A stretch of 64,000 nucleotides of DNA, from contig CAVTQK010000009.1 in assembly GCA_963736855.1 (NCBI GenBank), forward strand, positions 480,001-544,000, written 5' to 3'. The notes under the pieces were generated by a model. It ran no database searches. It was not told the origin of the DNA and saw only the letters and a list, made by a program, of their open reading frames with translations. Source of the DNA: an uncultured delta proteobacterium (lineage in GTDB: Bacteria > Desulfobacterota > Desulfobacteria > Desulfobacterales > UBA2156). Below, in pieces: positions 18,700-39,310 of the stretch. Position numbers and translations under genes: made by a program. How positions within the stretch are numbered: position 1 is the first letter of the stretch; every line of letters starts with the position of its first letter.

Positions 18700-18700
18700 G

Positions 18701-19684: not shown

Positions 19685-20776
19685 TTACCTAAAGTAAGCC
19701 CGGATGAATTTCAGAAAGCGCTCGTTTTCTTCATCCTTTCCCGGTGTCACGCGGAAATAGCCGCTCTTGCCGTGAATCTCGCCGATCTTTTTAAGGAAAA
19801 TCTTTTCCATGTCCATAGCGGCCGCAAGGATTTCATCTGTGGTCTTTCCGGTCATGGTGGCGTCAATGAGCATATAATTGCCATGGGCCGAATACGGTTT
19901 GAGGCCGGCTTTCTTGAGTTCCTCGGTAAAGATGGCCATCCACTTGTTGTTGTGCGCCACCTTTGCCTTGACTTCTTCAGGGTTGTCGAGGATCGCCTCC
20001 GCTGCTGCTGCGGACATCACGCTGACGTTCCAAGGCAGGAACATGCGCTTGAAGGCGGCGATCATCTCTATAGTTCCCAGCACAAACCCAAAGCGGATGC
20101 CTGCAAACCCGTAAGCCTTGGAAAAAGTCACCGACAGAAAAACCTGGGGATATTTCTTGATCAATGGAGCTTTCGACGGATGGTCAGGGTTATAATCCAG
20201 GTAGGCTTCATCCACGCAAAGCGGCACACCGGTTTCGCAGAATCGGATCAGATCCTTGTCATCGATAAACACCCCGGTGGGATTGTTTGGATTGATAATC
20301 AGAATCAGCTTCGTGCGTGTATTGATGGCGTTGAGCATGCCTTCGACATCGTATTGAAGATCCCCTTTTCGAACCGAAATCTGGACCACTTTACCGCCGC
20401 ACAGTTCGGCGCGGGGCGGAAAGAGCTCGAAGGTGGGAGTGGAACAGATGAATTCATCTCCGGGTTTTAGAAAAATCCGCATCATCGCATCGATGATTTC
20501 CGATGAACCGTTGCAGAGCGCCACGTTTTCAGGACCCAGGCCGTACATTTTTCCGATCTTGGTCCGTAGACGGAGAAAGCTGTCAGGATACCAGTTTCCG
20601 TGTTTCATGGAGTTGGCGACAGCACTGATGACCTTGTCCGATGGGGGTATCGGGTTTTCATTGAGCATCAGCCGGCCTTTTTCTGGGCTGGCCCAAGCCT
20701 TATCTAGAATGCCGACGTTGTATTCCCGTGACGTGAGCAGCCACGGCACAAACCAGTCTTTGAGTTCTTTTGCCAT
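19685..20776 (-). CDS. Class I/II PLP aminotransferase, HisC/CobD-like
   Basis: LNENP, NGSSEII, NPNNPTG, VDEAY, TFSKAYGFAGIRFG. Confidence 0.85.
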   Translation of the reverse strand: MAKELKDWFVPWLLTSREYNVGILDKAWASPEKGRLMLNENPIPPSDKVISAVANSMKHGNWYPDSFLRLRTKIGKMYGLGPENVALCNGSSEIIDAMMRIFLKPGDEFICSTPTFELFPPRAELCGGKVVQISVRKGDLQYDVEGMLNAINTRTKLILIINPNNPTGVFIDDKDLIRFCETGVPLCVDEAYLDYNPDHPSKAPLIKKYPQVFLSVTFSKAYGFAGIRFGFVLGTIEMIAAFKRMFLPWNVSVMSAAAAEAILDNPEEVKAKVAHNNKWMAIFTEELKKAGLKPYSAHGNYMLIDATMTGKTTDEILAAAMDMEKIFLKKIGEIHGKSGYFRVTPGKDEENERFLKFIRAYFR

Positions 20777-20833
20777 TTTTTCCTCCTGATACCATATTTA
20801 GTGTTCAAAAACCTGCGGGAAACGGTCGATCGT

Positions 20834-21946
20834 TTACAGCACCGCATCCAACGGTTTGTATTCCAATCCAAAAGCCTCGGCCACGCCTTTATAAGTCACC
20901 TTACCGTCGATGATGTTCACCCCTTTGGCCAAATCGGGGTTTTGCCTTACCGCGACCTTGTATCCTTTTCCCGCCAGTTCCAGCGCATAGGGCAGGGTGG
21001 CGTTGGTCAACGCAATGGTGGAGGTCATGGAAACCGCACCAGGCATGTTGGCCACACAATAGTGGATAATGCCGTCCACTTCATAGATCGGATCATCGTG
21101 GGTGGTTGGCTTTGCAGTTTCGACACACCCTCCCTGATCAATGGCCACATCCACGACAACCGAGCCTTTTTTCATCAAGCCCAGCATCTCCCGGGTAACC
21201 AGCTTGGGTGCCATGGCGCCTGGAATCAACACGGCGCCGACCACCAGATCGGCCTCCGGCAGAAAATGCCGAATGGTGGCGGGATTGGACATGACCGGAA
21301 AACAATTTTTAGGCATCACATCGGAAAGGTACCGCAAGCGTTCGAGATTGTTGTCCAACAGATAAACCTTGGCCCCCATCCCGCAAGCCACCTTTGCGGC
21401 GTTGGTCCCAACGACGCCGCCTCCGATGACCAGGACAGTCCCTGAATTCACCCCTGGTACGCCGCTCAGCAGAATCCCTTTACCGCCATACGTTTTTTCC
21501 AGGTACTTGGCCCCTTCCTGAATTGCCATCCGACCGGCCACCTCACTCATCGGCGTCAAGAGCGGCAATGATCCGTTGGGCTTTTCCACAGTCTCATAAG
21601 CGATCGCGACACATTTGCTGGCCATGATGGCGCGTGTCAATTCTTCCGATGCCGCAAAATGAAAATAGGTAAAGAGGACCTGCCCCTTCCGGATCAGAGC
21701 GTATTCAACCGGCAAGGGTTCCTTGACCTTCATAACCATTTCGCAGGAACTGTAGATTTTTTTCGGGGTTTTCGCAATGGCGGCTCCGGCCCTGACATAG
21801 TCACCATCCGAGAAACCGGAACCACTCCCCGCCAGGGTTTCGATGAGGACCTTGTGCCCGCGGGTTGCCATTTGTTCCGCACCGGCAGGCGTCATGGCTA
21901 CCCGGTTTTCTTTTCTCTTTATCTCTTTCAAAACACCTATTTGCAT
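20834..21946 (-). CDS. ald: Alanine dehydrogenase
   Basis: [48 protein letters not shown]. Confidence 0.97.
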
Positions 21947-21969
21947 GAGATGACCTCCTTCTTTGAATA

Positions 21970-23190
21970 CTATTTTTTCGAAGCGAAATTACAGGCCGAA
22001 TCCAAGCACTTTCCTGCAAAGGTTACCATCTCCTGTGTAGCCTTCGAAAACTGATCGGCCGTTCGCTGTAAGGCCGAATGTGTATTGTATTCATCACGGG
22101 TATATCCGTCTTCGGCATAGGCCCTTTCGAAATAGGGAACCCTCATGAGCTTGTCCATCACGTTCTTGGGAATATTCGCATGGATCCGATCCGGCTCGTA
22201 AACGATATTTTTTTCCTCCTCAAAATTCATGACCTGATCGATGAACGACGGCGGACAGGTGACAACGATGGATGCGCCGGTTTTTTCTTCCAAGTGCCAG
22301 ATCCGGGTGGCACCGTTTACTTTGGGCCCCAAACGCAGCGAACAGGAAAGCATCTTGCTGGGCATCCGATTTTTTTCTAGGAATTGATAGGCCTTCTTGA
22401 AAATCGCCAGTTCCGCCAACCGAATATCTCCATCGGTCAGTTCAATCCCCTTTTCCTTTGCAAAATCCCTCAAGCCGCCAAGATCGCCGTATCGGGATTC
22501 CATGTGGGTGATGACTGAACGCCATTTACTCAGATCCACGTTGTTTGCCTTGGCCCTTTTCAATCCTTTCTGAACGGTGCGGGCGCAATCCACCAGCTGC
22601 GGCAGAATAAACGTGAGGGTGTTGTTGGTGGAGATCCCCCGTGCGGTCAGCTCTTCGATGATATCGTATCCTTGCTTGGAGCCCGGCACTTTGATCATGA
22701 CATTCGGATTGATCGCGGCCAACTCGAGGGCCTGCCTGAGCATGGCGTCCTTGTCGAACACGCTTCTTGGATCCACCTGACCGGAAAGGAATCCCTCTTT
22801 GTATCCGGATTTTTCAAACACAGACAGATACATGTCCGATCCGCGCTTCACCACTTTCTTGTATAACCTCCAAAACAGGGACTCTTTTTCAATACCCGGA
22901 TTTTGGGCGATAATTTCTTTGGCAACGCCTTCCCAGTAGGGCGGATCGTCCTGAATCGCCTGCAAGGACAAGGGCGGATTGGTGGTCACCCCGCGGAACA
23001 GCTGTTTTTCCGGTGCTTTTTCGTCATACATGCGGCCAAACTGGCGTTGTAAGATATTTCGGTTCTCAGGCGCTGCCTTGTCGAGCATCTTATGGCACCA
23101 GTTTTTAAAAATCACCGGGGAGGAATCCCACCAGATCTCCATTCCAGGGCTGACTTCCACCAACTTTTCAATCAGGTTTTTCTCTTCCAT
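21970..23190 (-). CDS. Transaldolase family protein (divergent)
   Basis: WWDSS, GVTTNP, GQVDP, NVMIKVP (Schiff-base Lys), ISTNNTLTF. Confidence 0.82.
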   Translation of the reverse strand: MEEKNLIEKLVEVSPGMEIWWDSSPVIFKNWCHKMLDKAAPENRNILQRQFGRMYDEKAPEKQLFRGVTTNPPLSLQAIQDDPPYWEGVAKEIIAQNPGIEKESLFWRLYKKVVKRGSDMYLSVFEKSGYKEGFLSGQVDPRSVFDKDAMLRQALELAAINPNVMIKVPGSKQGYDIIEELTARGISTNNTLTFILPQLVDCARTVQKGLKRAKANNVDLSKWRSVITHMESRYGDLGGLRDFAKEKGIELTDGDIRLAELAIFKKAYQFLEKNRMPSKMLSCSLRLGPKVNGATRIWHLEEKTGASIVVTCPPSFIDQVMNFEEEKNIVYEPDRIHANIPKNVMDKLMRVPYFERAYAEDGYTRDEYNTHSALQRTADQFSKATQEMVTFAGKCLDSACNFASKK

Positions 23191-23269
23191 TCACATCCTC
23201 CTTAAAATAATGATTGATCAATACAGTTTGGCTCAATGGGAAGCTTCTCCGGTCTCAGCTTCGGATTGT

Positions 23270-24022
23270 TCATGGGGTCAAATGATATTGTCCCAATTCA
23301 ACTTCAAAAACGCATTTGTCCCCTCTGAAATAACTATAAAGCACTTCAACAGGCATGTTTCGATCATTATAGGTTACACTTTCCGAATACAAAGCAGCGC
23401 TGTTTTGCTTGAGTCCAAGCTGTTGGGCAATTTTCCTGTTCAGGTTGACCGCTCGGATCGTTTGTGCGCTTCGGGCCAGAATGACACCAAATTCCTTGGT
23501 AAAGATCTCGTACATGGAGCCGGTCAGATCCATATCCAGGATTCCCTCGAAAAGATCCGCCGGCACATAGGTCTCCTCATAAATCAATGGGTGGTCGTCT
23601 CCGGAGCGCACCCTTCGGATGGCAATGATTTTGCTGTTCGGGCTCACCGCCAAATTCTTTGCCACATATTGGGTCGGCACCTCGTAGCCTTTTTCAAGAA
23701 GCCGTGTCTTTTCGCGGATGCCGGACTGTTGAAGCTCCAGGCCCAAACTCGAAATCCGGTTTAGCTTGTGTCTCACTGGAAGTGATTCGACAGATGAAAC
23801 GAACGTGCCGATCCCTTTGACTTTTTGCAGCAACCCGCCGGCGGTCAATTCTCCGATGGCCTGTCTCAGCGTATTGCGGTTGACCCGGCACATCCGTGAC
23901 AATTCGATTTCAGAGGGAAGCTTTTCGCCGATCTTGTATCTTCCCTGCTGAATCGCATCTTTAAGCCATGCGCTGATCTGAAGATATTTGGGTATCGGGT
24001 TGTTGGGATCAACAATAATCAC
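23270..24022 (-). CDS. GntR family regulator, HutC/UTRA subfamily
   Basis: PKYLQI, KLPSEIEL, VNRNTLRQAI, GIGTFV winged HTH followed by a UTRA-type C-terminal domain ending YFRGD. Confidence 0.92.
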   Translation of the reverse strand: MIIVDPNNPIPKYLQISAWLKDAIQQGRYKIGEKLPSEIELSRMCRVNRNTLRQAIGELTAGGLLQKVKGIGTFVSSVESLPVRHKLNRISSLGLELQQSGIREKTRLLEKGYEVPTQYVAKNLAVSPNSKIIAIRRVRSGDDHPLIYEETYVPADLFEGILDMDLTGSMYEIFTKEFGVILARSAQTIRAVNLNRKIAQQLGLKQNSAALYSESVTYNDRNMPVEVLYSYFRGDKCVFEVELGQYHLTP

Positions 24023-24113
24023 GGTTTATTCACCCTTTTTTGCTGAAAGAAACCTAGTCGGGAGGCCGTTACAAATATTGAAATCTGTTGACATAGGGAA
24101 CAGCTTGTTCCGA

Positions 24114-26006
24114 CTACCTTTTACTCATGAACCTGATTTTATCCCTTATGTTATCCGGGCCGAGTCCTTGATACAGGATCTGCTCATTCAGACCGCCACG
24201 CCCTTCTTTGGTGGTCCCCATGTAGGCATAGGCGCCTTTGAATCCTTTTTCCAAAAGCCAGGTGCCGAATCGAACGCCCAGGCCCGATTTTGCGTTCTGG
24301 GTCTCCACCACCAGGACAAATTTTGCTCCTGCCAATCGCCTCATCATTTCTTCATCAATGACATTCAGCGTCGGCTTGTTAATGAGTCCCACTCGAATAT
24401 CATCGGCCTTCAGGCGTTCCACCGCATCGAGGCAGCGGTAGAGCATCTCACCGTAAGAAACGACAAACCCTCCTTCGCCTTCCCGGATCACTTCATCCTT
24501 TCCCGGGACAAACCGATAGTTTTTATCAAAAAATGTTTCCCCATGGGTGTTCAGGATAAACGGAGTCGCAGACCGCGTTGAAAAGACAAACCGCAAGCCC
24601 TCGTCATGAAAAACCTCTTGAAGGACAGCCCGCATCTGGTTGGAATCGGCCGGAAAGTACAATCGGGTGGCGTCCTTTTCCGGCAAACCGTTGTCGGCAA
24701 AAAAAATGTTGATCCCGAAATGGCAGGTGTTGTCCGCCATATCATCCACGCCGGCGTGGGAAAAATGGGCCAGCACATTGGCCCGGTTCAGACGAGCCAT
24801 GGTGACTTCCGAAACCACCATTTCCAGAAACGCGGAAAAGGTTCCAAAGATTCCCTGTCTTCCTTTTTCCGAACCGAATCCGGAGGCCACCGAAAAATTA
24901 CTCCGTTCCATGATGCCGCCCAGGATATAAATTTCGGGAAACGATTTTCGGATATGATGGAGCCCGCAGGATCCCTCCAGATCCGAATCCACGACGAGCA
25001 CCCTGGATTTGCGGTCCGGCATCGTTTTAAGAATATCGCAAAGGATCTTTCCGAAATCGTCCCGGTTTTTCGCTTGTTCCCGGGTACTCCCAAGATAGAC
25101 GGTTGCAGACTTTGGTTTGGCTGTCGTTTCCAGAACCCGAACGGCTTCCTGACGGCCCTTTTCTTTCAGATAGGAAACGGCAAGATCTACAGAAATCACA
25201 TCATGGGCCTTGGGGGAGCCCTCGATTCCCGGAATGCCTGCGGCCATTTTTCGCTGATTGATCATCGCCACCGGCCCATCGGTGGTCAGTGCCCGATGTA
25301 TCCTTTGATATAAAGCCGGCAGATCTTCGCCCAAACCGGTATCCACCTTCACTCCATGGCCCTTCAACGTTTTTTCGACGCTGAATCCTTTCAAATAGTC
25401 GCTGGGATGTCCGGCAATGGTCACATCATTGTCATCGATCAGGAGTTTGATGTTGAGATGCCGGGCCACGGCATACCGGGCCGCTTCCGCATCTCCGCCT
25501 TCCTGCTGGGAGCCGTCACTGCCGAACAGTACCACTATCTTGCCCGGATGGGCTGAAGCTACGCCGTTGACATAGCCCCACAAGTGACCCAGGCGTCCCG
25601 AGCTGAAAAAGACGCCCTGTTTGTCGTCCCTTTCGGGGTGCCCATAAAGGCCGCTGCCAAACTCCCTATAATGCAGCAGCGACTCGATCGGTTTGTACCC
25701 GTTCAGGACTGCCATAAGGTATTGAATGGCAACCCGGTGACCCGCCTCATCAAAGTACACAGGATAAATCGTATCGCTGCCCTTCATGAAACCATCCACA
25801 ATCAGAAGCTCGGGTACGATATCATATGCCCCTCCTGTATGGCCGCCCAGACCCTTGGTGTTGGCATAGGCGGTAAAAAAGACAATACTGTCGCGCACCA
25901 ACGCTATGTTTTGCCGCAACTGCACCTCGTTTTCATCGGTGAGTTGTCTTTGTGAGAAGGAAAACTTCAGGGGTTTAAACGCGCTAAAATCGATTGGAAA
26001 ATTCAT
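24114..26006 (-). CDS. Atypical single-chain transketolase-like ThDP enzyme
   Basis: GGHTGG, GHPE, ThDP motif GSDGSQQEG...DDN, DSDLEGS, GIMER, FGTFSAF. Confidence 0.85.
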   Translation of the reverse strand: MNFPIDFSAFKPLKFSFSQRQLTDENEVQLRQNIALVRDSIVFFTAYANTKGLGGHTGGAYDIVPELLIVDGFMKGSDTIYPVYFDEAGHRVAIQYLMAVLNGYKPIESLLHYREFGSGLYGHPERDDKQGVFFSSGRLGHLWGYVNGVASAHPGKIVVLFGSDGSQQEGGDAEAARYAVARHLNIKLLIDDNDVTIAGHPSDYLKGFSVEKTLKGHGVKVDTGLGEDLPALYQRIHRALTTDGPVAMINQRKMAAGIPGIEGSPKAHDVISVDLAVSYLKEKGRQEAVRVLETTAKPKSATVYLGSTREQAKNRDDFGKILCDILKTMPDRKSRVLVVDSDLEGSCGLHHIRKSFPEIYILGGIMERSNFSVASGFGSEKGRQGIFGTFSAFLEMVVSEVTMARLNRANVLAHFSHAGVDDMADNTCHFGINIFFADNGLPEKDATRLYFPADSNQMRAVLQEVFHDEGLRFVFSTRSATPFILNTHGETFFDKNYRFVPGKDEVIREGEGGFVVSYGEMLYRCLDAVERLKADDIRVGLINKPTLNVIDEEMMRRLAGAKFVLVVETQNAKSGLGVRFGTWLLEKGFKGAYAYMGTTKEGRGGLNEQILYQGLGPDNIRDKIRFMSKR

Positions 26007-26140
26007 GGACTGCCTCCCATGGATCACATAGTCTTTCGCCCATCAGCCGCATACCGTCGACCGACCATCTTCTATCGAACCCCGCTGTCGCATCTTTCGA
26101 TGCGATTGTTTCCGGATGTTCAAGCCCCTCTGTCTAATGT

Positions 26141-26156
26141 TATAGATGTATATACA
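26141..26156. promoter_or_regulatory. HutC-type GntR operator 1
   Basis: TATAGATGTATATACA with core palindrome TGTATATACA, just downstream of a minus-strand TTGACA (26191-26186) promoter for the transketolase unit. Confidence 0.75.
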
Positions 26157-26283
26157 TGTTAAATATATCCGGGAACCTGTTTTCATGTCAAGAAAAATTT
26201 GTGAGCTTAACCCGACCTTAACAGAGATATAAGACACCCTATTGAAAGATTGATATTTTTAATCCAGATGCTATGGTGGTTAT

Positions 26284-26349
26284 ATGTCCCATAAAACCAG
26301 CATAGACGCTCCCGGAGCCATTCATTTCCCAATCATCGGCGGCAAATGG
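26284..26349 (+). pseudogene. Possible N-terminal remnant of a REP-associated (Y1/IS200-like) tyrosine transposase
   Basis: Translates MSHKTSIDAPGAIHFPIIGG, resembling the MPRKARIDAPGALHHIIxRG start of such transposases; there is no continuation. Confidence 0.35.
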
Positions 26350-26488
26350 GTGCGAAGCCGGATGCAGGATGATTTCATTCATAAATAGCGGCAGAACGAA
26401 AATATGAACGCATCTGTCGATATGTCATGAGCATCCCTGGAACTTTTACGCCCTAAGAGTTTACAAAGTTTTTCAATAGGAGGGCCGG

Positions 26489-27172
26489 ATGTTAAAGCTG
26501 GATGTCGGATGCGGTCAGAACAAAAAGAACGGTTTTTTGGGTATAGATATCGCCAGCTCACAAGGGGTTGATTTTGTTCTTGATATTACCAATGAGAAGC
26601 TTCCGCTTCAAGACAATTCAGTGGATGAAGTATTTTCAAATCACTTCTTTGAGCATATTGATTCACCCAAAGAGGCCCTTGAAGAACTGATCCGCGTATC
26701 CGTGGAAGGAGCGACCTTCGAAATCTGGACTCCCTATCTGAAATCCGACGAGGCCTTTCTTCTCGGTCACCGTCATTTCTATAACGAGACCATCTGGAGG
26801 CATATATGCATCGAATACCCTTACTTCTGGCTGAAAGATGTGGAAGCAACCCTAAGGCTGGATAAGTTATGTTATGTGCTCAAACCGGATGCGGTCGCCG
26901 AGCTGGAACAGCTCAAAATTCCCCTCTTTTTTGCCCTGAAACACATGTTCAATATTGCCAGTGAAATGGGAGCCATCATGACCGTCATCAAAGGAAAGGA
27001 TGTAAAAGGGATTCCCTGCGCCGAACCCGAGCGGTTCGTGTCTCTTTCGAGGCAAGGACCGTTTGAAAAACTGACTGATGCCGGAATTCCCTCAACGAAT
27101 ATGGCAACCTTAACAAAGGTTCGCCGGAAAATATCCTTATTATCCCAAAAGCTGTTTTCCTCCCGTTCCTAA
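26489..27172 (+). CDS. Class I SAM-dependent methyltransferase domain protein
   Basis: LDVGCGQNKK, LGIDI, LPLQDNSVDEV, HFFEHI. Confidence 0.8.
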   Translation: MLKLDVGCGQNKKNGFLGIDIASSQGVDFVLDITNEKLPLQDNSVDEVFSNHFFEHIDSPKEALEELIRVSVEGATFEIWTPYLKSDEAFLLGHRHFYNETIWRHICIEYPYFWLKDVEATLRLDKLCYVLKPDAVAELEQLKIPLFFALKHMFNIASEMGAIMTVIKGKDVKGIPCAEPERFVSLSRQGPFEKLTDAGIPSTNMATLTKVRRKISLLSQKLFSSRS

Positions 27173-27341
27173 TTTCGTCGATCCAAAAAAGCCATTTTAA
27201 TGCACGCAAGGATTCCGGACCTTGCCATCAGGTCGCTTGGAATAAAGCAAGGATGCGGCCGCAGTCCATAAATGAACCTTCAACAGCGCCGCTGCCGCCC
27301 CTGATCCGTCAAGGATCTGCAGTTTCGCCCCGGTCGACAGC

Positions 27342-28301
27342 TTAAACGGCGACACCGCATTCTTCCCGGATGAACTCCAGATTCTTGACGGCATTCTCAT
27401 ACTTGACCTTGCCGTAGGCATAATAATCGAAGGTAATCTTGGAGACATTCAGTTGAATCAAGCTCCATAAAAACCAGTAGATGTCTGGAAACGGCTTAAA
27501 AAGATCAATGAAAAACATGGTCTTTTCAAACTCATGGTCTCCGCAGTAGGTTGCAACAATCTCTTTTTCGTACTGCCGAGGAACGAGGATTTCCTGGAAC
27601 ATATCGGCGATATCGTAATATTTGGGCGCCATCCCCGCGTATTCCCAGTCGATGATATACATGGGGGATGCATACTTTTCCAATGCGTCTTCATTGATGA
27701 GGATGAAATTGTCCGCCAGCAAGTCGTTGTGGCAGGGGGTATATTCGGACTCGGGAATGTTGATGATGCTTGATAGTTTGATGAGACGATCGATGGTTTC
27801 CGCGATATCGAACTCCGGATAATTGACATCCAGCCGCCTGAGGATGGCGGACATCTTCATGACCTCGATAAGGGGATTGAAAATCTTTTTCAATTTTGCC
27901 CCGCTGGTATGGATCTTTCGAATCGGCTCAACGATTTTGGGATGCAGTGACGTATCCAGAAAATGGTGGTTCTTTAACACAATAGAATCCCCGATGAATT
28001 CGACGATCGTCACTCCCAGTTCGGGCATGAACTTGATCAGTTTTGAACATACGCCGATTTTTGAAATTTCACGAACCGCCTGCGCCTCGTATTCCCGGTT
28101 GATGAAGAGATCGGTTTTGTCCCCATAGATCCGAACCGTATAATCGCCTTTTTCGGATTGAATCCGATACAGCTTGTTGGTGATCCCGCCTTTCAACTGG
28201 GTAATCCGGACATCAAGACCTTTCCATTCAGGCAAAAGGTCATAACAGATTTGCGGGGTCAAATCCCGGTCCAGTAAAGATATTGCACTGTGCATGTCCA
28301 T
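27342..28301 (-). CDS. Choline/ethanolamine kinase family phosphotransferase
   Basis: GGITNKLY, VRIYG, INREYE, Brenner motif CHNDLLADNF and IIDWEYAG. Confidence 0.88.
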   Translation of the reverse strand: MDMHSAISLLDRDLTPQICYDLLPEWKGLDVRITQLKGGITNKLYRIQSEKGDYTVRIYGDKTDLFINREYEAQAVREISKIGVCSKLIKFMPELGVTIVEFIGDSIVLKNHHFLDTSLHPKIVEPIRKIHTSGAKLKKIFNPLIEVMKMSAILRRLDVNYPEFDIAETIDRLIKLSSIINIPESEYTPCHNDLLADNFILINEDALEKYASPMYIIDWEYAGMAPKYYDIADMFQEILVPRQYEKEIVATYCGDHEFEKTMFFIDLFKPFPDIYWFLWSLIQLNVSKITFDYYAYGKVKYENAVKNLEFIREECGVAV

Positions 28302-28488
28302 TCCCCCTTCAAATAAAGCGGTTGGCGATTTACATAAAAATCTTGACAAAAGTAAACCTTACACGTTAGGCAGAAAATCAATTTGAGTCCTCTGATTTGA
28401 TGAAGTTTAGTGACGGAATGCGTTCACGACGCCGATGGATCGATAGAGTCCTTTTTGACTGCTGAAGACTATTATTTTTCAGTTATGC

Positions 28489-28504
28489 TGTATATACATC
28501 TATA
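28489..28504. promoter_or_regulatory. HutC-type GntR operator 2
   Basis: TGTATATACATCTATA, the exact reverse complement of 26141-26156. It overlaps the -10 of a minus-strand promoter TTGACA (28527-28522)-17 bp-TATAGA. Confidence 0.75.
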
Positions 28505-28585
28505 TCAATAAGCCCAATTCATGTCAAGGGGAAACGGCGGGACGAACTTGATGCTGACCCAACACCCAAAAAGGAGGCTGGTTCA

Positions 28586-29635
28586 ATGAAACGACGCGAT
28601 TTTATGAAAAAGGCAGGGATAGGCGCCGCCGCAGTGGCGGCCACAGCGGTCAATGCACCTTACGTGATCGCGCAAAAGAAAACGACTATAAAATGGCGGA
28701 TACAAACCTATGCCGGGCCCGCTCTGGCCGCACATGTTATTAAGCCGTCGATCGATGCATTCAACAAGGCGGCAAACGGAGAAATGGTGATCGAGCTGTA
28801 CAACGCGGACCAGTTGGTGCCCCAGGGGGAGCTCTTCAGGGCCGTACAGAAAGGGACCATGGACGCATGCCAGAGCGACGATGATTCCATTGCGGCCCCG
28901 GTCGATGTGGCGGTGTTTGCGGCATATTTTCCCTTTGCATCGCGCTATTCGCTGGACGTTCCCACCCTGTTTCACTGGTATGGACTGGATAAGATCTGGC
29001 AGGAAGCCTATGCCGGCATAAAAGGTGTCACCTGGCTGGGTTCGGGGTCCTGGGATCCCTGCAACTTTGCCACCGTCAAGCCCATCAACCATCTGTCTGA
29101 TCTCAAAGGGTTGAGAATGTATATGTTCCCCACCGGAGGCAGGTTCATGCAGCAATTCGGCGTGGTGCCCATGTCGCTCAAATACGAAGATGTTCAAATG
29201 GCCATCCAGACCGGTGAGCTCGACGGCGTCGCCTGGTCCGGCATCACCGAAGATTACACGGTGGGCTGGGCGGATGTCACCAAGTACTACCTGACCAATC
29301 CCATATCCGGCGCCTGGTCAGGATCCTACTTTGTGAACACCGCCGCGTGGGAAAAAGTTCCGGAACATCTGAAAGCGTTGTTCAAACTGTCCATGGACAG
29401 CTCCCATTACTACCGTCTGCATTGGTACTGGTGGGGTGAAGCGCATTATCGTGTCAAAGGCGGTAAACTGAAACTGACGACGATCCCGGCCAACGAGTGG
29501 AAAACCGTAGAAGATGCGGCCCTCAAATTCTGGGATGAGATCGCCGCCAAGAGCCCCAGGAACGCCAAGGTGGTAAAAATCCTCAAGGAATATGCCCAGA
29601 TCATGAAGGATGCCGGCCCTCCGTATCGATATTAA
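28586..29635 (+). CDS. TRAP transporter substrate-binding protein (DctP family) with Tat signal
   Basis: RRDFMKK twin-arginine signal, WRIQTYAG, LSDLKGLR, AIQTGELDG. Confidence 0.9.
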   Translation: MKRRDFMKKAGIGAAAVAATAVNAPYVIAQKKTTIKWRIQTYAGPALAAHVIKPSIDAFNKAANGEMVIELYNADQLVPQGELFRAVQKGTMDACQSDDDSIAAPVDVAVFAAYFPFASRYSLDVPTLFHWYGLDKIWQEAYAGIKGVTWLGSGSWDPCNFATVKPINHLSDLKGLRMYMFPTGGRFMQQFGVVPMSLKYEDVQMAIQTGELDGVAWSGITEDYTVGWADVTKYYLTNPISGAWSGSYFVNTAAWEKVPEHLKALFKLSMDSSHYYRLHWYWWGEAHYRVKGGKLKLTTIPANEWKTVEDAALKFWDEIAAKSPRNAKVVKILKEYAQIMKDAGPPYRY

Positions 29636-29665
29636 TCCTTAAAAAGCTTTCTGTCAGGCCTTAAA

Positions 29666-29707
29666 TCACCTTCCCGGGTCAGAGTGAAAACCGGTCCGGG
29701 AAGGTGA
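29666..29707 (+). other. Hairpin after TRAP SBP gene
   Basis: TCACCTTCCCGG...CCGGGAAGGTGA, a 12-bp stem. Confidence 0.6.
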
Positions 29708-29734
29708 ACCTTTTAAAAGTCATAAGGAATCGAT

Positions 29735-30247
29735 ATGCCGAAAATCATTCAGAACTTCGTACGATACACGGAAGCCACCAGCAAAGCCGTCGGCCGTTTT
29801 TCCCAGTACTTGGTTTTCGCCATGATGGGCATTCTGCTGTTCGAGTCCCTATCTCGAACCTTCTTTAACCGCCCGCACATCTGGGTTGTGGAAACCTCTC
29901 AATTTCTCATGGCCGCCTATTACCTTTTGGGCGGCGCTTATTCCATGATCCTGGAAGGGCATGTTCGCATGGACCTCTTCTACGGCCGCTTGTCAAAGAA
30001 ACGGCAGGGGCTGACGGATGTGATCACCGGCCCTTTTATGATCTTTTACCTGGTCTTTCTTCTGATCGGCGGCATTTCCAGCATCGATTACGCTATAAGA
30101 TACGGGCAAAAAAATTATACGCCCTGGGCGCCGCCTTTGACTCCGATTAAAATCATCATGGCCATCGGAATCCTGCTGATGCTGCTCCAAGCCATCGTAT
30201 TCTTTATCAAAGACATCGCTAAAGCCAGAGGAAAGGAATCCTCATGA
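29735..30247 (+). CDS. TRAP transporter small permease (DctQ)
   Basis: Four TM segments, GHVRMDLFY; lies between the SBP and the large permease. Confidence 0.9.
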   Translation: MPKIIQNFVRYTEATSKAVGRFSQYLVFAMMGILLFESLSRTFFNRPHIWVVETSQFLMAAYYLLGGAYSMILEGHVRMDLFYGRLSKKRQGLTDVITGPFMIFYLVFLLIGGISSIDYAIRYGQKNYTPWAPPLTPIKIIMAIGILLMLLQAIVFFIKDIAKARGKESS

Positions 30248-31570
30248 GTCATGAACTGATCGCCCTTCTGATCTTTTCCTCGATGTTGCTCATGTTGCTG
30301 ACGGGGCAACGGATCTTTGCCGCCATCGGCGGAGTGGCAACCTTGTTCGCCCTCTGGTTATGGGGGGAAGGCGGAGCGGAGATGCCCTATCATGCAAGCT
30401 TCATTCTCCTGAACTGGTATCCGCTTCTTACTTTGCCCTTGTTTATCTATATGGGCTACATGTTTGCAGAATCGGGAATCGCCGATGACCTCTACCGCAT
30501 GTTCCATGTCTGGATGGGTCCCGTCAACGGGGGTTTGGCCATCGGAACCACCGGCTTGATGGTGGCGGTAGCCGCCATGAACGGGTTGAGTGTCGCCGGT
30601 ATGGCCATCGGCGCCAGTATCGCCATGCCGGAAATGCTGAAGCGAAAATACGACAAGGTCATGGTCACCGGCGTCATCCAGGCCGGAAGTTCTTTGGGCA
30701 TCATGATCCCTCCCAGCGTGGTCCTGGTCCTTTACGGCATGATCGCCCGACAGCCGGTGGGCCATCTCTGGATGGCCGGGGTTTTTCCCGGGCTGTTGTT
30801 GGCGGGGCTGTTCGTTCTCTATATTCTCATTCGATGCTGGATCCAACCCCAAATGGGCCCGGCCCTGAGCTTGGAAGAGCGTCAGCAGATCACCTGGGCC
30901 GAAAGATTCCGACTCCTTCGGGCGGGGATCATTCCCCTCTTGATTATTTTTTCCATGACCGGACTGTTTTTGATGGGGATCACCAGTCTCGTGGAGTGCT
31001 CCGCAGTAGGGGCAGTGGTGACAACCGTCGCAGCCTGGATGAAAAAGCGGCTGAATCGACGGGTCATGGAAGACACTCCTCCGAAACACCCTGAGCGTCA
31101 GTTGCATGTTCATGTGGGTGATTCTTGCGGCGATGTGCTTCGGGGCTGTCTTCGACGGCCTGGGGGCCGTTCATGCCATCGAGAATCTTTTCATCAAGAA
31201 ATGGGAACTCAGCCCATGGGGGATCCTGATCATGATGCAGGTTACCTATATCCTGATGGGTATGTTCCTGGATGATACCGCCATGCTCATCATCGTGGCG
31301 CCCCTGTATATCCCTCTGGTCATCAAGCTGGGATTCAACCCCATCTGGTATGGTGTACTCTACACCATCACCTGCCAGATCGCTTATATGACGCCGCCTT
31401 TCGGTTACAACCTGTTTCTGATGAAAGCCATGGCACCTCCGGAGGTGACGCTGGCAGACATCTACCGTTCCATTGTCCCCTTTGTTCTGGTGATGATGGT
31501 GGGTCTGGCGATTGTCATCCTCTTTCCCCCGATCGCCCTGTGGCTTCCCAATTTATACTTTGGAAAATGA
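30244..31570 (+). CDS. TRAP transporter large permease (DctM), frameshifted near 31080
   Basis: LGIMIPPS and IAYMTPPFGYNLF. Removing one C from GAAGACACTCCTCCGAAAC joins ORFs 30244 and 31106. Confidence 0.85.
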
Positions 31571-32094
31571 CAACCATGAAAATGCCGGATATTCGAATCC
31601 AAAAGATCCTCTTTGCCACCGACTTATCGGAAAGCTCCGTGCACGCCTTTGCCTATGCGGTGAGTCTTGCCAATATCTTTGGAGCCGGGATGACGATCCT
31701 TCATGTGATGGCCGAATTCCCCGGAGAAAAATTCATCCTGAACATGATCCAAACCGACACGTGGAAGGAAATCAAAAAACGGCATTATTCCGAAGCCCGG
31801 GATGACCTGATCCTGAAAAAAAGAGACCATGTCGCCATCAAGGAGGTTCTGGAGGCCTTTTCCGAAGCGGTTAAAAACGGAGACCCCAATCACGATTTCG
31901 TCACCGACGAAATCATCATTAAAAGCGGGCCTCCTGCCGAAACGATCGTCGAAACGGCAAAAAAGCGGAAGTGCGATCTGGTCGTCGTGGGAACCCACGG
32001 CCAGAGCGCCCTCGCCGATGTGTTGATCGGCAGCACCGCCCGATGGGTGGTCCGGAACTCACCGATTCCGGTTTTGGTTGTCCGTTTGCCCTAA
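31567..32094 (+). CDS. Universal stress protein (TRAP-associated)
   Basis: ILFATDLS, CDLVVVGTHG, IGSTARWVV..SPIPVLVV. Confidence 0.9.
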   Translation: MTTMKMPDIRIQKILFATDLSESSVHAFAYAVSLANIFGAGMTILHVMAEFPGEKFILNMIQTDTWKEIKKRHYSEARDDLILKKRDHVAIKEVLEAFSEAVKNGDPNHDFVTDEIIIKSGPPAETIVETAKKRKCDLVVVGTHGQSALADVLIGSTARWVVRNSPIPVLVVRLP

Positions 32095-32146: not shown

Positions 32147-32875
32147 GTGCGGATGAAACCATTTACCATCATCTGGGATTTTGACGGGACCCTGCTCCCC
32201 TCCGATCCCTATGACAGCGAACACACCTTGTTGCTGTACAATATCCATGCTTCCGATGATAGGCTCTCCCTGGCCAAACGGATCGTCGGCCTAACCATCA
32301 TCTTTTTAGACAGAAAAAAATGGATGGGCCCGGCATTCAAGAGATATTATGCCTGGGTGCTTTCAGGAACCCGTATGAATCGGCTCGATGGGGTCTCTGA
32401 GATGCTGGCCCAAAAAATTTCCGCATCCGACCGGGCCTCTCTTCTGAATTTATATCACCGTGGGCATACCCAGATGATCATCAGCTGCGGAACCCTCGAT
32501 CTGATCGAGAGGATCCTGGAGATTGCCGGCATCAAAAGCTGTTTTAAACGTATCGAAGGAAATCGGTTCCTTTCAGCCAACGATCGAATAATCGGAATCC
32601 AAAATCGCATCATTCATCCGACCGATAAACTGAAACCGCTCAAAGGACAAGACCTCGACGCCGATCGGGTCATTGCCATCGGGGACGGGTACACGGATCT
32701 TCCCCTCCTGGATTGGGCCCACTTTCCGGTCTTGATGGACCGATCTCAAACCAAAAGCCGATTGCCCGCCGAGCGATGTTATTCTAAGATCGCATCGATT
32801 TCAGACCTTGTCGAATGGATCGAACACCTATCCTCTGAAAACGGACCCGCAATATGCCGGCAAAGAAGAAAATGA
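32147..32875 (+). CDS. HAD hydrolase, phosphoserine-phosphatase-like
   Basis: WDFDGTL motif I, IISCG motif II, AIGDGYTD motif IV. Confidence 0.78.
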   Translation: MRMKPFTIIWDFDGTLLPSDPYDSEHTLLLYNIHASDDRLSLAKRIVGLTIIFLDRKKWMGPAFKRYYAWVLSGTRMNRLDGVSEMLAQKISASDRASLLNLYHRGHTQMIISCGTLDLIERILEIAGIKSCFKRIEGNRFLSANDRIIGIQNRIIHPTDKLKPLKGQDLDADRVIAIGDGYTDLPLLDWAHFPVLMDRSQTKSRLPAERCYSKIASISDLVEWIEHLSSENGPAICRQRRK

Positions 32876-33876
32876 AACGGAAAAATCTGATCGTGTTCGA
32901 CATGGACGGCGTGCTTATCGACGTCTCCCTGTCGTACCGGGACACCGTGCGTCAGACAGCCCGGCTCTTTTTCAAAGGGGCCCGAGGGTGGGAAGATCTT
33001 CCGGACCCGCTTTTTTCACTTTTGGATCTGGCCCGGGTCAAACAAAGCGGCGGGTTGAACAACGACTGGGATCTGTCATTTACCATAATCAGCCTGATTT
33101 ATTCCCTTGTCAAAGGCCCTAAGGCCCCGACGGCAGCCGAGCCCTGGCAGTATTACCGCGCCGGCATTTCCCGTTGCGATGTTTCCGAACTGGCGTGCTT
33201 TTTAAAGAGCGAATCGCAACCGCTAACCCGGCTTTCGGAAAAAATCGGAAGACCGATCCATGAATTCATATCCGCCTGCTATGCCGGCGATGTGGGAACC
33301 GGAAATATCATCAAACAGATTTTTCAGGAAATTTACCTTGGATCCGAACTCTTCCAGGCAACCTATGGGATCTTTCCTTCTGCTTACTTTGAAAAAGGGT
33401 TGATCGATAAGGAAAGGCTCCTCATCGATCCGTCGATTTTGGAACATCTCTTTCTTCGTCATATCCTGGCCATCGCCACCGGCCGCCCTAAAATAGAGGC
33501 GGACTACCCCTTGGACCGCTTTCAGATTCGACGCTATTTTTCGGCGGTATACACCCTGGATGATTGCCTGCGGGAAGAAAAGAAACGGTTTGAAGCCGGA
33601 AAGGAGCGCATCGATTTGGGCAAACCCAACCCTTACATGCTGGATGCCCTGAAGGCCGCTTTCCAGGAGGAAGCTTCAGGCTTTTATTATATCGGGGATA
33701 TGCCCGACGACATGATGACCGCCGCCCACTCCGATGCCCCTTTCCTGGGAATTGGAATCCTGCTTTCTTCCGAGGACAGAAAGGAGCTTGCCGAAGCGCT
33801 GCGCAAAGCCGGTGCGGCGGCAATCATCGATGACTTTGAGTCCCTGTTGACCCTCGTGAATACAGAGAAGCGCTGA
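32872..33876 (+). CDS. HAD superfamily IA hydrolase
   Basis: VFDMDGVLID, ATGRP, KPNP, YIGDMPDD. Confidence 0.8.
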   Translation: MKRKNLIVFDMDGVLIDVSLSYRDTVRQTARLFFKGARGWEDLPDPLFSLLDLARVKQSGGLNNDWDLSFTIISLIYSLVKGPKAPTAAEPWQYYRAGISRCDVSELACFLKSESQPLTRLSEKIGRPIHEFISACYAGDVGTGNIIKQIFQEIYLGSELFQATYGIFPSAYFEKGLIDKERLLIDPSILEHLFLRHILAIATGRPKIEADYPLDRFQIRRYFSAVYTLDDCLREEKKRFEAGKERIDLGKPNPYMLDALKAAFQEEASGFYYIGDMPDDMMTAAHSDAPFLGIGILLSSEDRKELAEALRKAGAAAIIDDFESLLTLVNTEKR

Positions 33877-33906: not shown

Positions 33907-36330
33907 TCAGACCCGGATCTTTTCCCGTTGGGGATCATAAAGAATCCGGTTCAGATGGCAGGTGGCCGGGTAGACCTTCCGGTAGGATTCGATTTCCCAA
34001 CCTTGGCCGGAGACGGCTTTTTCTGCCGGAACATATCCATAGGCGATCGTCTTTTCAATGGTATGGCCGTATCCGGCGCTGCTCGTCACTCCGATCACCT
34101 CGCCTTTTCGAATAATCGGGGCGCTTCCCTGGATCATGACCGGATCCTTTTCATCAAGGGTAAAGCTGCACAGTCGCCATGGGGCTCCATCCTTTCGAAT
34201 CCTGGCCAACGCGACTTTTCCCATGAAATCTTCTTTATCAAGGAACACGCAGGTATCGAGGCCGGCATCATAAGGGGTGTATTCGGGCGTGAGTTCAGAC
34301 CCCCAGTCCGCATTTCCTTTTTCAAGTCTCATCGAGTTGATGGCCCGATAACCGGCATTTCCGATTGAAAAATCCTGTCCAGCCTCCCAGAGAGTTTCAT
34401 AAACATGTCCGGCAAAATCCACAGGAATGTAAAGCTCGTATCCCAGTTCTCCCACATAGGTGATCCGGAATGCCGTCACCGGCGCATGACCGACGGCTAT
34501 CGGCTTGCAGGCCCCGAATCGAAAGTCCTTGATTGCTGAGGTCGTCTTTTGTAATCCTCTGGAGCAGTTCCCTCGATTTCGGCCCAACGACGTTGATGAC
34601 CCCAAAAGCCGATGTGACCTCATGGAATACGACCGAGCCGTCGGTCGGCAGGTGCTTCCTGATCCACCATCCGACGCGAAGTCCGAAGGCGGTTCCCACC
34701 ACCAGCAGGAACCTCTCAGTTTCCAAACGAGCGACGGTAAGGTCACACTCGATCCCTCCACGATCGTTACACATGGGGGTGTAGATCACCGAGCCGACCG
34801 GTCGATCGATCCGATTCGTGCATAGGCGGTTCAAAGACTCCAGCGCTTTTGGGCCTGTCATCTCGAATTTGCAGAAGGATGACTGATCGATGAGGACCAC
34901 TTTTTCCCGGGCCCGGCGATGTTCATCAGCAACGCATACAAACCACCCGGGAACTTCAAAGGTGGGCCGGTCCTTGTACTCGGCCCCTGGGGGGCAAACC
35001 AGTTCGGCCGTTCCCATCCGTATTTGGCGCCGAATACCCCCCTTTTTGCCTTTAAAAGGTTATAAAGGGGGCTCCGCCGGACTCCCCGGGCCGAATCATG
35101 TTCTTCATGGGGCCAGTGGATCGTGTAATGCTTTCCGTAAAGCTCGGCGGTTCTTTCAACCTGATAAGACCTGCTCTTATGATGGGGGCCGAAGCGACGG
35201 ATATCGAGGGGCCACAGATCGAGACTCGGTTCCCCATGGATAATCCATTCGGCCATCATTTGTCCGGCACCCCCTCCTGCAGCAATCCCGAATGCATTGA
35301 AACCGACGGCCACAAAGAGATTGTCAAGTTCGGGCGCCGGCCCCATGATGGCGTTGCCGTCCGGGGTGAACCCTTCCGGACCGTTGATCAGCTTGATGAT
35401 CCCCGCACTTTTCAGGCATGGGGTTCGGCGAAGGGCCGGTTCGGAAAGGATCTGAAAATGATCGAAATCCGGCTCCAGGAGCCTTCCCGAAAAGTCATTG
35501 GATACGCCATCCACCGACCAGGGGATTCCGTTTCTCTCGTAACCGCCCATGACAAGCCCGCCGACTTCCTCTTTATAGTAGATCAGGTTGTCCTTGTCCC
35601 GGATGGTCGGTAAATTCTTCGGCATGCCTGGGATCTTTTCGCTGACCAGAAACTGATGTTGAAACGGAACCACCGGTGTATTGACCCCCAGCATCCTTCC
35701 AACCTGGTATCCCCACATGCCCGTGCAGTTGACGACGGTTTCACATTCGATCTTTCCTGTTTGGGTTAAAACCGCTTGGATTCGCTTTCCCTGTATGTCA
35801 AAGCCGGTGACCAGGGTGTCCGTGGAGATCTTTGCCCCCCGATCCCGTGCTCCCCTCGCCAGCGCCTGGGTAATGCCGGAAGGATCGGCCTGCCCGTCCG
35901 TGGGCATGAAAGCCGCCCCGATGATCCCTTCAAGGGAGAGGATGGGGCAAAGATCGTAAGCTTCTTTGGGGGTAAGAATGTGCATTTCAAGTCCGAAGCT
36001 GCGGGCGGTGGTGGCGCCCTTTTTCAGTTCGTACATGCGATCCCGGGTGGAGGCCAGGTGCAGGCAACCGGTTTTTTTCCACCCGGTGGACAGTCCGGTT
36101 TCCGCCTCAAGAGTCTCATATAAGCTGACGCTCATCTGCAGCATCCGGGTGATGTTGCGTTCACTGCGGAGTTGGCCCACCAAACCGGCCGCATGCCATG
36201 TGGACCCGCTGGTCAACTGATTCTTTTCCAGAAGCACGATATCCTTTATGCCGAGTCGGGTCAGGTGATAGGCCGTGCTGCATCCGATGATGCCGCCGCC
36301 AATGATCACAACCCGGGCGCTTTGCCGCAT
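33907..36330 (-). CDS. FAD-dependent GcvT-family oxidoreductase (dimethylglycine/sarcosine dehydrogenase-like), split by two frameshifts
   Basis: IIGGGIIG, TSGSTWHAAG, FTPDG, GWERPNWF, GGIECDLTV, YVGELGYEL, MRLEKG. Shifts at the G6 run 34989-34994 and near 34530. Confidence 0.85.
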
Positions 36331-38066: not shown

Positions 38067-38102
38067 GTCCGTTCTTTCCCTGGATAGGGAATTGGGTGGC
38101 TT

Positions 38103-39292: not shown

Positions 39293-39310
39293 GGTCGATT
39301 GGCTCTTTGA

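Follow-up and report, generated by a model that had tools for sequence, protein, structure and literature searches.

How might an anaerobe use ethanolamine when its genome encodes no EutB? The question is raised by a gene cluster in a 64,000-nucleotide stretch of DNA from an uncultured Desulfobacterales bacterium (contig CAVTQK010000009.1, positions 480,001 to 544,000; hereafter the window). Genes for a transketolase (TK), a HutC-type GntR regulator, a transaldolase-like (tal-like) protein, alanine dehydrogenase (Ald) and a HisC-like aminotransferase lie there close to those for a choline/ethanolamine kinase and a tripartite ATP-independent periplasmic (TRAP) importer. Our answer is that the cluster is probably a conserved regulon, defined by the GntR regulator and its operator, that would break down ethanolamine without B12 to xylulose 5-phosphate (Xu5P). 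Gene content, operator, class of the solute-binding protein (SBP), conserved linkage and a mutually exclusive gene swap were observed directly.

In the proposed pathway, ethanolamine would be imported by the TRAP system, whose SBP is of the EtoX type, and phosphorylated by the kinase to phosphoethanolamine. The HisC-like enzyme would convert phosphoethanolamine and pyruvate into glycolaldehyde-2-phosphate and alanine, and Ald would turn the alanine back into pyruvate with formation of NH4+ and NADH. Next, the tal-like protein would join a dihydroxyacetone (DHA) unit, taken from fructose 6-phosphate (F6P), sedoheptulose 7-phosphate (S7P) or free DHA, to glycolaldehyde-2-phosphate, and TK would carry the resulting Xu5P into the non-oxidative pentose phosphate pathway. 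In a swapped version, a class II aldolase would form xylulose 1,5-bisphosphate (XuBP) from dihydroxyacetone phosphate (DHAP) and glycolaldehyde-2-phosphate, and CbbY would convert it to Xu5P. The same core would, in many relatives, receive phosphoethanolamine or N-methylated head groups by way of an ABC importer and a demethylase, either MttB or a protein resembling dimethylglycine dehydrogenase (DMGDH-like). All enzyme activities in this scheme are ones that we infer. An earlier note on this DNA had proposed import, phosphorylation, transamination with recycling by Ald, and C-C condensation; this order of steps is supported and appears to be the best reading of the genes, while its option of serinol and DHAP is disfavoured, the CbbY swap narrowing the likely substrate to ethanolamine.

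Gene families in the window were assigned with Pfam and NCBIfam profiles on open reading frames (ORFs), and coordinates are window positions. Comparisons were made with 80 tal-like loci of GTDB genomes, the best of 91 (tal loci), 80 kinase-anchored metagenome loci (kinase loci), 35 genomes with the pathway, hand-picked for long contigs and including relatives that are not independent (pathway genomes), 401 genomes of the phylum (phylum genomes) and, for the swap, 61 relatives of one tal genome.

Importer, kinase and aminotransferase

Among known structures, the SBP matched 4UAB, the ethanolamine-bound Csal_0678, with an E value of 1.1e-138, the next match being at 1.4e-19. It clears the cut-off of e-60 for similarity to Csal_0678 that was published for the EtoX/Csal_0678 class (PMC10132767). 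Csal_0678 binds ethanolamine via Glu220 and, as far as the accessible text of PMC12410723 and PMC4646407 goes, without a carboxylate-binding Arg. In our SBP, Glu222 aligns with this Glu220, given an assumed construct numbering offset of 3, and Tyr179 occupies the position of the carboxylate-binding Arg (the SmoM Arg in the alignment). The Phaeobacter homolog EtoX has a Kd of 7.9 uM for ethanolamine, and in the available part of the same study PE and PC were not bound (PMC10132767). These data support the assignment of the SBP to the ethanolamine-binding class, with ethanolamine as the predicted ligand. The likeness to the ethanolamine TRAP class of Chromohalobacter, which the earlier note had suggested, is borne out by the 4UAB match, the kept platform Glu and the replaced carboxylate Arg.

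Four other orthologs of the SBP, 69-76% identical, were found in the 401 phylum genomes. Three are followed by eutB (eutC being confirmed in two), and one by a glutamine-synthetase-like (GS-like) protein, a C26 peptidase and an iron-containing alcohol dehydrogenase. One importer is thus combined with three alternative catabolic modules, two known ones elsewhere and that of the present cluster here. EutB was not found in this genome (100% complete) either with PF06751 (0 matches) or by tblastn; it is absent from 10 of 10 genomes that combine EtoX, kinase and tal, and only 3 among 34 pathway genomes encode it. The single GS-family gene of the genome adjoins PII- and ammonium-transporter-like genes, neighbours that we recognised from sequence, and its product is 25% identical to the GS-like protein of locus L129. 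A GS-like glutamylase with dehydrogenases and an amidohydrolase beside EtoX was not found in this genome. The earlier note had seen neither eutBC nor a glutamylase in the window; for EutB this absence extends to the whole genome, and the lone GS-family gene lies elsewhere.

The kinase scored 109.7 bits with PF01633 (gathering threshold 29), and its nearest structure is the choline kinase LicA (4R77, E 5e-23), the alignment with which bears out the kinase motifs. We predict it to be an ethanolamine kinase. An EtoX-type SBP gene was present in 49 of the 52 kinase loci that have 1 kb or more of upstream sequence.

The HisC-like enzyme reached 260.5 bits with TIGR01141 (HisC; cut-off 276.55) and 152 bits with TIGR01140 (CobD; cut-off 290), and the N-terminal HGG motif that is typical of CobD was not present in the alignment. 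It is 26-27% identical to the two other HisC proteins of the genome, both of which pass TIGR01141 and one of which is encoded next to cmk- and rpsA-like genes. A housekeeping hisC identity was rejected on the ground that this gene falls below the cut-off while the two others pass, and a CobD identity on the score and the missing HGG. Two other HisC genes pass and this one does not, so that the case of its being the only hisC of the genome, which the earlier note had said would speak against its proposal, does not apply. The enzyme keeps the pyridoxal phosphate Lys220 and the NENP and DEAY motifs. Its N-terminal lid is altered, and in 7 of 7 aligned members of the HisC-like clade Lys takes the place of HisC's first substrate-binding Arg. 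No close plasmid homolog was found (best match about 30%). We predict a phosphoethanolamine:pyruvate aminotransferase. Ald scored 506 bits with TIGR00518 (cut-off 392) and is single-copy by tblastn; the linkage to Ald implies transamination.

The condensing step and its gene swap

Co-occurrence in other genomes, on which the earlier note had made its proposal depend, was found: in the 80 tal loci we counted a HisC-like gene in 67, gntR in 57, ald in 48, the kinase in 22, the EtoX TRAP in 11 and an ABC importer of the PhnS2-like kind in 17; none contains eutBC. Methyltransferase counts for these loci had been made without an identity threshold and were disregarded. When only the 49 tal loci with at least 4.5 kb downstream are considered, 47 contain the HisC-like gene, and the conserved core is the pair of tal-like and HisC-like genes. 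Hosts of tal loci include Desulfobacterales, Syntrophales and Thermoleophilia. EtoX is accompanied by the kinase in 10 of its 11 tal loci, and EtoX and the ABC importer never occur in one locus. The choline-kinase family was detected in 31/35 pathway genomes versus 5/401 phylum genomes; three of the four pathway genomes without it have an ABC SBP of the phosphate-ester type.

The strongest indication of the acceptor comes from a gene swap. In metagenome locus L168, EtoX and the kinase are followed by gntR, by genes for a class II ketose-bisphosphate aldolase and a HAD protein, and by two ald genes, and the aldolase and HAD genes stand at the position of tal in sibling loci. The best structures for this HAD were Arabidopsis CbbYA (4UAV, E 3e-62) and R. 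sphaeroides CbbY (4UAR, 1e-39), followed at 2e-17 by the next one. Among the 61 relatives, 16 have CbbY and 11 the tal-like gene, and no genome has both. A HisC-like gene was present in 24 of the 61 (14 of those with CbbY, 8 of those with tal and 2 of the 34 with neither), so that exactly one of tal-like and CbbY accompanies it in 22 of 24. The CbbY loci contain the series aldolase-cbbY-ald in 16/16 cases, gntR in 14/16, hisC in 13/16 and the operator in 13/16. The hypergeometric value, 6e-5, makes the case look too strong because related genomes are not independent, a kinship that leaves the positional swap unaffected. CbbY is specific for the conversion of XuBP to Xu5P, and XuBP has been made enzymatically by aldol addition of DHAP and glycolaldehyde phosphate (PMC10212915). 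Two unrelated enzyme sets in one slot suggest the same acceptor and the same product, most likely glycolaldehyde-2-phosphate, the transamination product of phosphoethanolamine, and Xu5P. CbbY itself is absent from the window and from this genome.

The swap also bears on whether the substrate could be an amino alcohol of three carbons, namely serinol, 3-amino-1,2-propanediol or aminopropanol, to be converted to DHAP, glyceraldehyde 3-phosphate (G3P), or lactaldehyde or acetol phosphate. The kinase and HisC families are promiscuous. Moreover, ethanolamine sites can accept serinol and alaninol, according to the accessible account of CqsR. DHAP and G3P, however, would not call for an enzyme dedicated to condensation, whereas tal or aldolase plus CbbY accompanies the HisC-like gene in those 22 genomes; CbbY acts on a C5 bisphosphate, and this implies an acceptor of two carbons; and SBP orthologs adjoin eutBC. 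Serinol, whose product DHAP would require no condensation, was rejected as substrate on the first two points, and we regard a C3 substrate in general as very unlikely. With glycolaldehyde-2-phosphate and Xu5P suggested by the swap, ethanolamine is favoured over serinol. A reversed pathway is also constrained by CbbY. Transaldolase, transaminase and Ald steps are reversible, and Xu5P might be cleaved to glycolaldehyde phosphate and aminated to phosphoethanolamine, with Ald supplying alanine and TRAP plus kinase serving salvage. The phosphatase step of the swapped version, though, is effectively one-way to Xu5P, no phosphoethanolamine cytidylyltransferase or phosphotransferase recurs in the loci, and importers and demethylases indicate catabolism, which makes the reverse direction exceedingly improbable.

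We assign the condensing step, as a prediction, to the tal-like protein. Its AlphaFold2 model (pLDDT 91) is nearest in fold to C. glutamicum transaldolase (3R5E, 22% identity), and D22, N71, the Schiff-base Lys K167, N189, T191, T228, R233, S284 and R286 are kept. Asn189 and Thr228 form a polar donor site, and Arg233, Ser284 and Arg286 the phosphate site, so that the phosphate-binding and C1-OH residues of transaldolase are retained. In transaldolase Glu96 is catalytic; here Gln138 replaces it, and Met230 replaces Phe178 or Tyr. Within the clade, Gln occurs in 80/84 and Met in 77/84 sequences. A canonical transaldolase is matched in fold, Schiff-base Lys, Asp, Asn and phosphate Arg/Ser, and not in Glu96 and Phe178; the protein does not match fructose-6-phosphate aldolase (FSA), with Gln present, Met in place of Tyr and a polar rather than apolar donor site. 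The roles of F178Y and A129S in transaldolase and FSA are treated in PMC3962226. With Gln138 and Met230 at the acid-base sites, the protein is classed from its residues as neither a canonical transaldolase nor an FSA. E231 was considered as a relocated catalyst and rejected, being invariant in the close clade and not in the 50% clade.

The gene is the only TAL_FSA gene of the genome. Its clade was taken as 170 representative proteins at E <= 1e-30, and matches in the ESM Atlas fell only in 'transaldolase family' clusters. As C3 donor we lean slightly to F6P/S7P (transaldolase mode) over free DHA (aldolase mode), both of which would lead to Xu5P. In P0138 and P0227, tal-like domains are fused, in one case with a YieH-like HAD phosphatase and in the other with a xylose-isomerase-like barrel; the HAD-tal fusion and recurring HADs are compatible with the aldolase mode without proving it.

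Members of the clade were also encountered outside the pathway. An inositol catabolic cluster on Clavibacter plasmid NZ_CP021037.1 ends with a distant tal-like gene (26%; L113:7836-8960), from which we think it likely that the Gln/Met clade has several substrates. A cluster on Shinella plasmid NZ_CP093338.1 (L112:6982-18497) encodes a class II aldolase (39% to the L168 type), a CbbY-like HAD (51%) and a 44% tal-like protein, and no HisC-like protein. This Shinella cluster also holds an AcoAB-like dehydrogenase complex, with the tal-like gene inserted, gph, an isomerase and triose-phosphate isomerase (TPI), and adjoins an FGGY kinase and an ABC importer; its genes could encode a polyol or tetrose pathway, so far undescribed, that likewise runs through glycolaldehyde phosphate.

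The earlier note had ascribed condensation to transketolase and transaldolase together. The tal-like part of this idea is retained and the TK part is not, as TK is an interchangeable general enzyme. His63, 97, 130, 424 and 436, Glu374, Asp432, Arg322 and 485, Ser353 and the DG..N thiamine diphosphate (ThDP) motif are invariant in comparison with two canonical TKs, while scores below the NCBIfam equivalog cut-offs place the protein in a divergent clade. It is apparently the only intact TK of the genome, and since the same clade was found in 6/6 genomes of an unrelated family without a tal-like gene, it is general. Some TK is present in 39/80 tal loci. It is of three types, namely members of this clade, canonical enzymes and split ones with RpiB, and this variety suggests that the product is a ketose phosphate, not that a special TK is required.

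These facts can be turned into another reading: the HisC-like enzyme would be a phosphoethanolamine phospho-lyase yielding acetaldehyde, with tal and tkt as housekeeping pentose phosphate genes that merely lie nearby. Routes of kinase plus phospho-lyase exist in Erwinia, and the single TAL_FSA gene, the apparently single intact TK and the TK clade found without the pathway all agree with it. Known phospho-lyases, however, are class III enzymes, as described in the accessible part of PMC8154272; tal accompanies hisC-like and operator across phyla and is swapped for aldolase plus CbbY; and Ald implies transamination. We consider this reading barely credible and retain the condensing route to Xu5P.

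Several observations weigh against that route. A tal gene is found in only 9/24 kinase loci with at least 5 kb downstream, the remainder having unrelated neighbours, and the kinase in only 2/19 tal-positive phylum genomes; in 10 of 16 loci fetched from these 19, the ABC importer was found. Among 31 long tal loci, 11 are without Ald and 8 without TK. The pathway genomes were chosen by hand for their long contigs, and related genomes among them do not count as independent. The tal-like protein has neither of the two known acid-base residues (the transaldolase Glu and the FSA Tyr), so its chemistry is a prediction, and the Gln/Met clade is broad, occurring as well in the Clavibacter inositol cluster and in the Shinella AcoAB-like operon without HisC.

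The fate of Xu5P is a further weak point. The genome holds ATP-dependent phosphofructokinase, RpiB, Rpe and TPI. Neither a fructose-1,6-bisphosphatase (FBPase, class I or V) nor a class II fructose-1,6-bisphosphate (FBP) aldolase was found in it, complete as it is, and motif scans for another F6P-regenerating enzyme, which were weak, gave no candidate. If TK and Rpe/Rpi take part and F6P is regenerated, the balance computed for the transaldolase mode is 3 glycolaldehyde phosphate to 2 G3P and inorganic phosphate (Pi). As no FBPase or FBP aldolase was found, a closed cycle is hypothetical, and what the route provides might be chiefly nitrogen and pentose phosphate.

Operator, gene layout and neighbouring units

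The features are collected in Table 1.

Table 1. Annotated features of the cluster and its surroundings.
Feature	Position	Strand	Basis
HisC-like class I-beta PLP aminotransferase, predicted phosphoethanolamine:pyruvate aminotransferase	19685..20776	-	TIGR01141 260 bits, below cut-off
Alanine dehydrogenase (Ald), predicted alanine to pyruvate + NH4+ + NADH	20834..21946	-	TIGR00518 506 bits, above cut-off
Transaldolase-fold (TAL_FSA) enzyme, Gln/Met clade, predicted Xu5P-forming	21970..23190	-	PF00923
HutC-type GntR/UTRA regulator, predicted repressor at 16-bp operator	23270..24022	-	PF00392+PF07702
Divergent transketolase; likely start 26006, 630 aa	24114..26027	-	catalytic residues, ThDP motif
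Operator 1, TATAGATGTATATACA, palindromic core TGTATATACA	26141..26156	+	16-mer search
S-adenosylmethionine methyltransferase, lineage-specific insertion	26489..27172	+	PF08241
Choline/ethanolamine kinase; ORF 27342-28349, likely ATG 28295, 317 aa	27342..28295	-	PF01633
Operator 2, same 16-mer TATAGATGTATATACA, between kinase and TRAP genes	28489..28504	-	16-mer search
TRAP solute-binding protein, EtoX/Csal_0678 ethanolamine class, Tat signal	28586..29635	+	match to 4UAB
TRAP small permease DctQ	29735..30247	+	PF04290
TRAP large permease DctM, frameshifted near 31077 in assembly	30244..31570	+	PF06808 in two pieces
Universal stress protein (USP), end of TRAP unit	31540..32094	+	PF00582
Two HAD hydrolases, second TIGR01548-like	32147..33876	+	profile matches
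DMGDH-like flavoprotein, two frameshifts in assembly	33907..36330	-	60% to intact relative
PhnS2/AfuA-like ABC importer	36354..40438	-	TIGR03261/3262/3265, all below cut-offs

The co-directional unit with gaps under 100 bp and the identical 16-bp operator at both units, as described in the earlier note, were both recovered. All genes of the tkt-gntR-tal-ald-hisC unit are in place, with gaps of 91, 79, 23 and 57 bp, and in the whole genome (3.91 Mb) the 16-mer occurs at only two sites with at most one mismatch, a third appearing at two mismatches. Operator 1 lies just 3' of a near-consensus predicted sigma-70 promoter of the tkt operon (minus strand, -35 at 26191, -10 ending at 26162), which is predicted to be a repressor position. 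Its palindromic core is similar to HutC-type operators. With up to two mismatches, the 16-mer was found in 51/57 loci with gntR, 4/23 without it and 0/6 with DeoR instead, and in 1/240 shuffled sequences; this fixed count was preferred to a scan with a position weight matrix, the matrix having been trained on the same loci. The operator stands before whichever gene heads the unit, and relatives have an equivalent site between dctP and the kinase gene.

The gene layout of the earlier note was right as to the genes present. It had missed the methyltransferase gene between tkt and the kinase gene, the frameshift in dctM, and the fact that the kinase gene is co-directional with tkt; in several relatives it lies directly upstream of tkt. 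The methyltransferase gene has a GC content of 0.456 versus 0.52 for tkt and is present in 3/80 kinase loci, and on these grounds it is probably outside the pathway. In relatives, dctM is a single ORF of 440-441 aa. The frameshift here is probably an assembly error, since the extra base near 31077 is absent from the contigs of 4/4 runs. Both indels of the DMGDH-like gene are absent in 3/4 runs, and real pseudogenisation of dctM or gcvT was rejected on these run counts. The USP gene accompanies 18/80 kinase loci, and the second HAD gene 14/80 tal loci and 4/16 CbbY loci.

A second unit on the minus strand (33907-41285) encodes a HAD-IIA phosphatase, the PhnS2/AfuA-like ABC importer and the DMGDH-like flavoprotein, and is often part of the pathway operon in relatives. 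The operator scan found no site upstream of this unit here. The structures nearest to the ABC importer, 4R72 (which we take to be AfuA) and 6WCE, bind sugar phosphates and pyridoxal phosphate. We regard the importer as a probable accessory, a candidate phosphoethanolamine importer bypassing the kinase, and the DMGDH-like protein as another, a candidate N-demethylase for methylated ethanolamine phosphates; the unit as a whole probably supplies phosphoethanolamine or its methylated forms. At L017, L031, L047, L081 and L104, genes for MttB-, MtbB- or MtmB-type methyltransferases and corrinoid proteins lie in or beside the pathway genes, which suggests demethylation of choline-type substrates upstream of the core.

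Such genes raise the question of whether choline, N-methylated ethanolamines or their phosphates are the true substrates, the regulon acting after demethylation with ethanolamine secondary and the core chemistry unchanged. This would agree with LicA as the nearest structure of the kinase, with DMGDH-like genes in 20/80 and electron-transfer flavoprotein genes in 18/80 tal loci, with the methyltransferase and corrinoid genes just mentioned, and with MthK/MthB, which act on phosphocholine and have homologs in deltaproteobacteria (PMC12155760, in its accessible part). We nevertheless hold it to be unlikely: the SBP is of the ethanolamine class, of which EtoX bound neither PC nor PE in the available part of PMC10132767, MttB was not found in this genome, and the DMGDH-like unit is without operator. 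Because transamination requires a primary amine, the core substrate would still be phosphoethanolamine.

The ABC importer gives the one hint of 2-aminoethylphosphonate, which the core would transaminate to phosphonoacetaldehyde and condense to a phosphono-sugar: its best NCBIfam matches are putative transporter families for this compound. Every one of these matches is below cut-off, PhnJ and PhnX occur in 1/35 and 3/35 pathway genomes and are absent from this one, and a kinase and EtoX would make no sense for the phosphonate. As PhnJ and PhnX are rare, the C-P bond would rarely be cleavable. The phosphonate was rejected as substrate and seems extremely unlikely, phosphoethanolamine being kept.

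Further genes were noted on either side. Past a strong hairpin after hisC (about 19620-19660), a stretch at 13394-19546 (-) encodes D-amino-acid transaminase-like, alanine racemase, CapA-like, glutamate-racemase-like, Ddl-like ATP-grasp and N-formylglutamate amidohydrolase-like proteins; five of its genes recur downstream in 14-16 of 80 tal loci. It is possibly a separate D-amino-acid or polyglutamate module. On the other side, 42687-47033 (-) holds genes for a type-2 glycerol-3-phosphate oxidase-like protein, an FAD oxidoreductase and a PiT phosphate transporter, and a PhoU-like gene, so that phospholipid head groups and phosphate seem to be the theme of the broader region. Genes for dsrAB-like sulfite reductase subunits and a CbiA/CobB-type amidase lie at 4660-8933 (-). 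From the dsrAB-like genes and named relatives, the organism is a sulfate-reducing member of the Desulfobacterales.

Relation to known pathways

In the accessible text of a 2022 review (PMC9397018), the Eut and gamma-glutamylation routes of ethanolamine are given along with its oxidation to glycolaldehyde and with lipid recycling, and the word 'phosphoethanolamine' does not occur. No description of a route from ethanolamine via glycolaldehyde-2-phosphate to Xu5P was found in the open-access literature searched; subscription journals, which lay outside the search, may hold one. On balance, we favour the view that this is an undescribed, carbon-conserving head-group route of anaerobes. It would carry (phospho)ethanolamine and demethylated choline into the pentose phosphate pathway via glycolaldehyde-2-phosphate. 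Its phosphoethanolamine aminotransferase would be the first natural one, and condensation would fall either to a new subfamily of transaldolase-fold enzymes, with Gln and Met, or to a class II aldolase plus a catabolic CbbY.

Ethanolamine and choline of membrane lipids are abundant sources of C, N and P in sediments and anaerobic digesters. If the proposal is true, these head groups would be open to Desulfobacterota of sediments, Syntrophales and Thermoleophilia with no need for B12-dependent lyases and no release of trimethylamine. A route that keeps the phosphate ester and brings both carbons into Xu5P would add a further ethanolamine pathway, and, together with demethylases, choline could be broken down without trimethylamine, a methanogen substrate. 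Functions would be given to the Gln/Met transaldolase clade and the HisC-like clade, and to CbbY in catabolism, outside Rubisco repair. The route would also be a natural carbon-conserving module of C2 assimilation for ethylene-glycol or glycolaldehyde engineering.

Several known systems are close to parts of the route. The HisC-like enzyme shares with HisC and CobD the class I-beta fold and amino-alcohol phosphate substrates, and differs from them by scores below both cut-offs, an altered N-terminal lid and the Arg-to-Lys change. The tal-like protein has the fold, Schiff-base Lys, Asp/Asn/Thr network and phosphate site of transaldolase subfamily 3 (C. glutamicum 3R5E, Neisseria) and FsaA, whereas identity is about 22%, Gln and Met replace the catalytic Glu and Phe/Tyr, and the predicted acceptor is a C2 phosphate. 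In Erwinia, an amino-alcohol kinase and an O-phosphoethanolamine phospho-lyase likewise begin with phosphoethanolamine. The Erwinia-type lyase, of class III according to the accessible part of PMC8154272, frees Pi and acetaldehyde, whereas the class I-beta transaminase here is predicted to retain the phosphate ester. The XuBP phosphatase CbbY of R. sphaeroides and Arabidopsis (4UAR/4UAV) is known only for repair of Rubisco damage, as far as the accessible part of PMC10212915 goes; its ortholog, with a class II aldolase, substitutes for tal in 16 relatives and would be a catabolic step there. Choline demethylation by MthK/MthB in Eubacterium limosum, as described in the available text of PMC12155760, similarly activates an amino alcohol with a LicA-type kinase in an anaerobe; it stops at dimethylaminoethanol phosphate and uses the methyl group alone, whereas assimilation of the C2 backbone is predicted here and the genome has no MttB. 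Ethanolamine ammonia-lyase, EutBC, has the same substrate and is preceded by the same TRAP importer in other Desulfobacterota; this genome is without EutB, and neither a B12/radical step nor acetaldehyde is predicted. A parallel in importer and purpose is the gamma-glutamylation pathway of Chromohalobacter and Phaeobacter MED193 (4UAB; PMC10132767, in its accessible part), which has the same EtoX/Csal_0678 TRAP class and is likewise B12-independent. Our cluster contains no glutamylase, dehydrogenases or amidohydrolase; activation would be by phosphorylation, and the carbon is predicted to reach Xu5P, not glycine.

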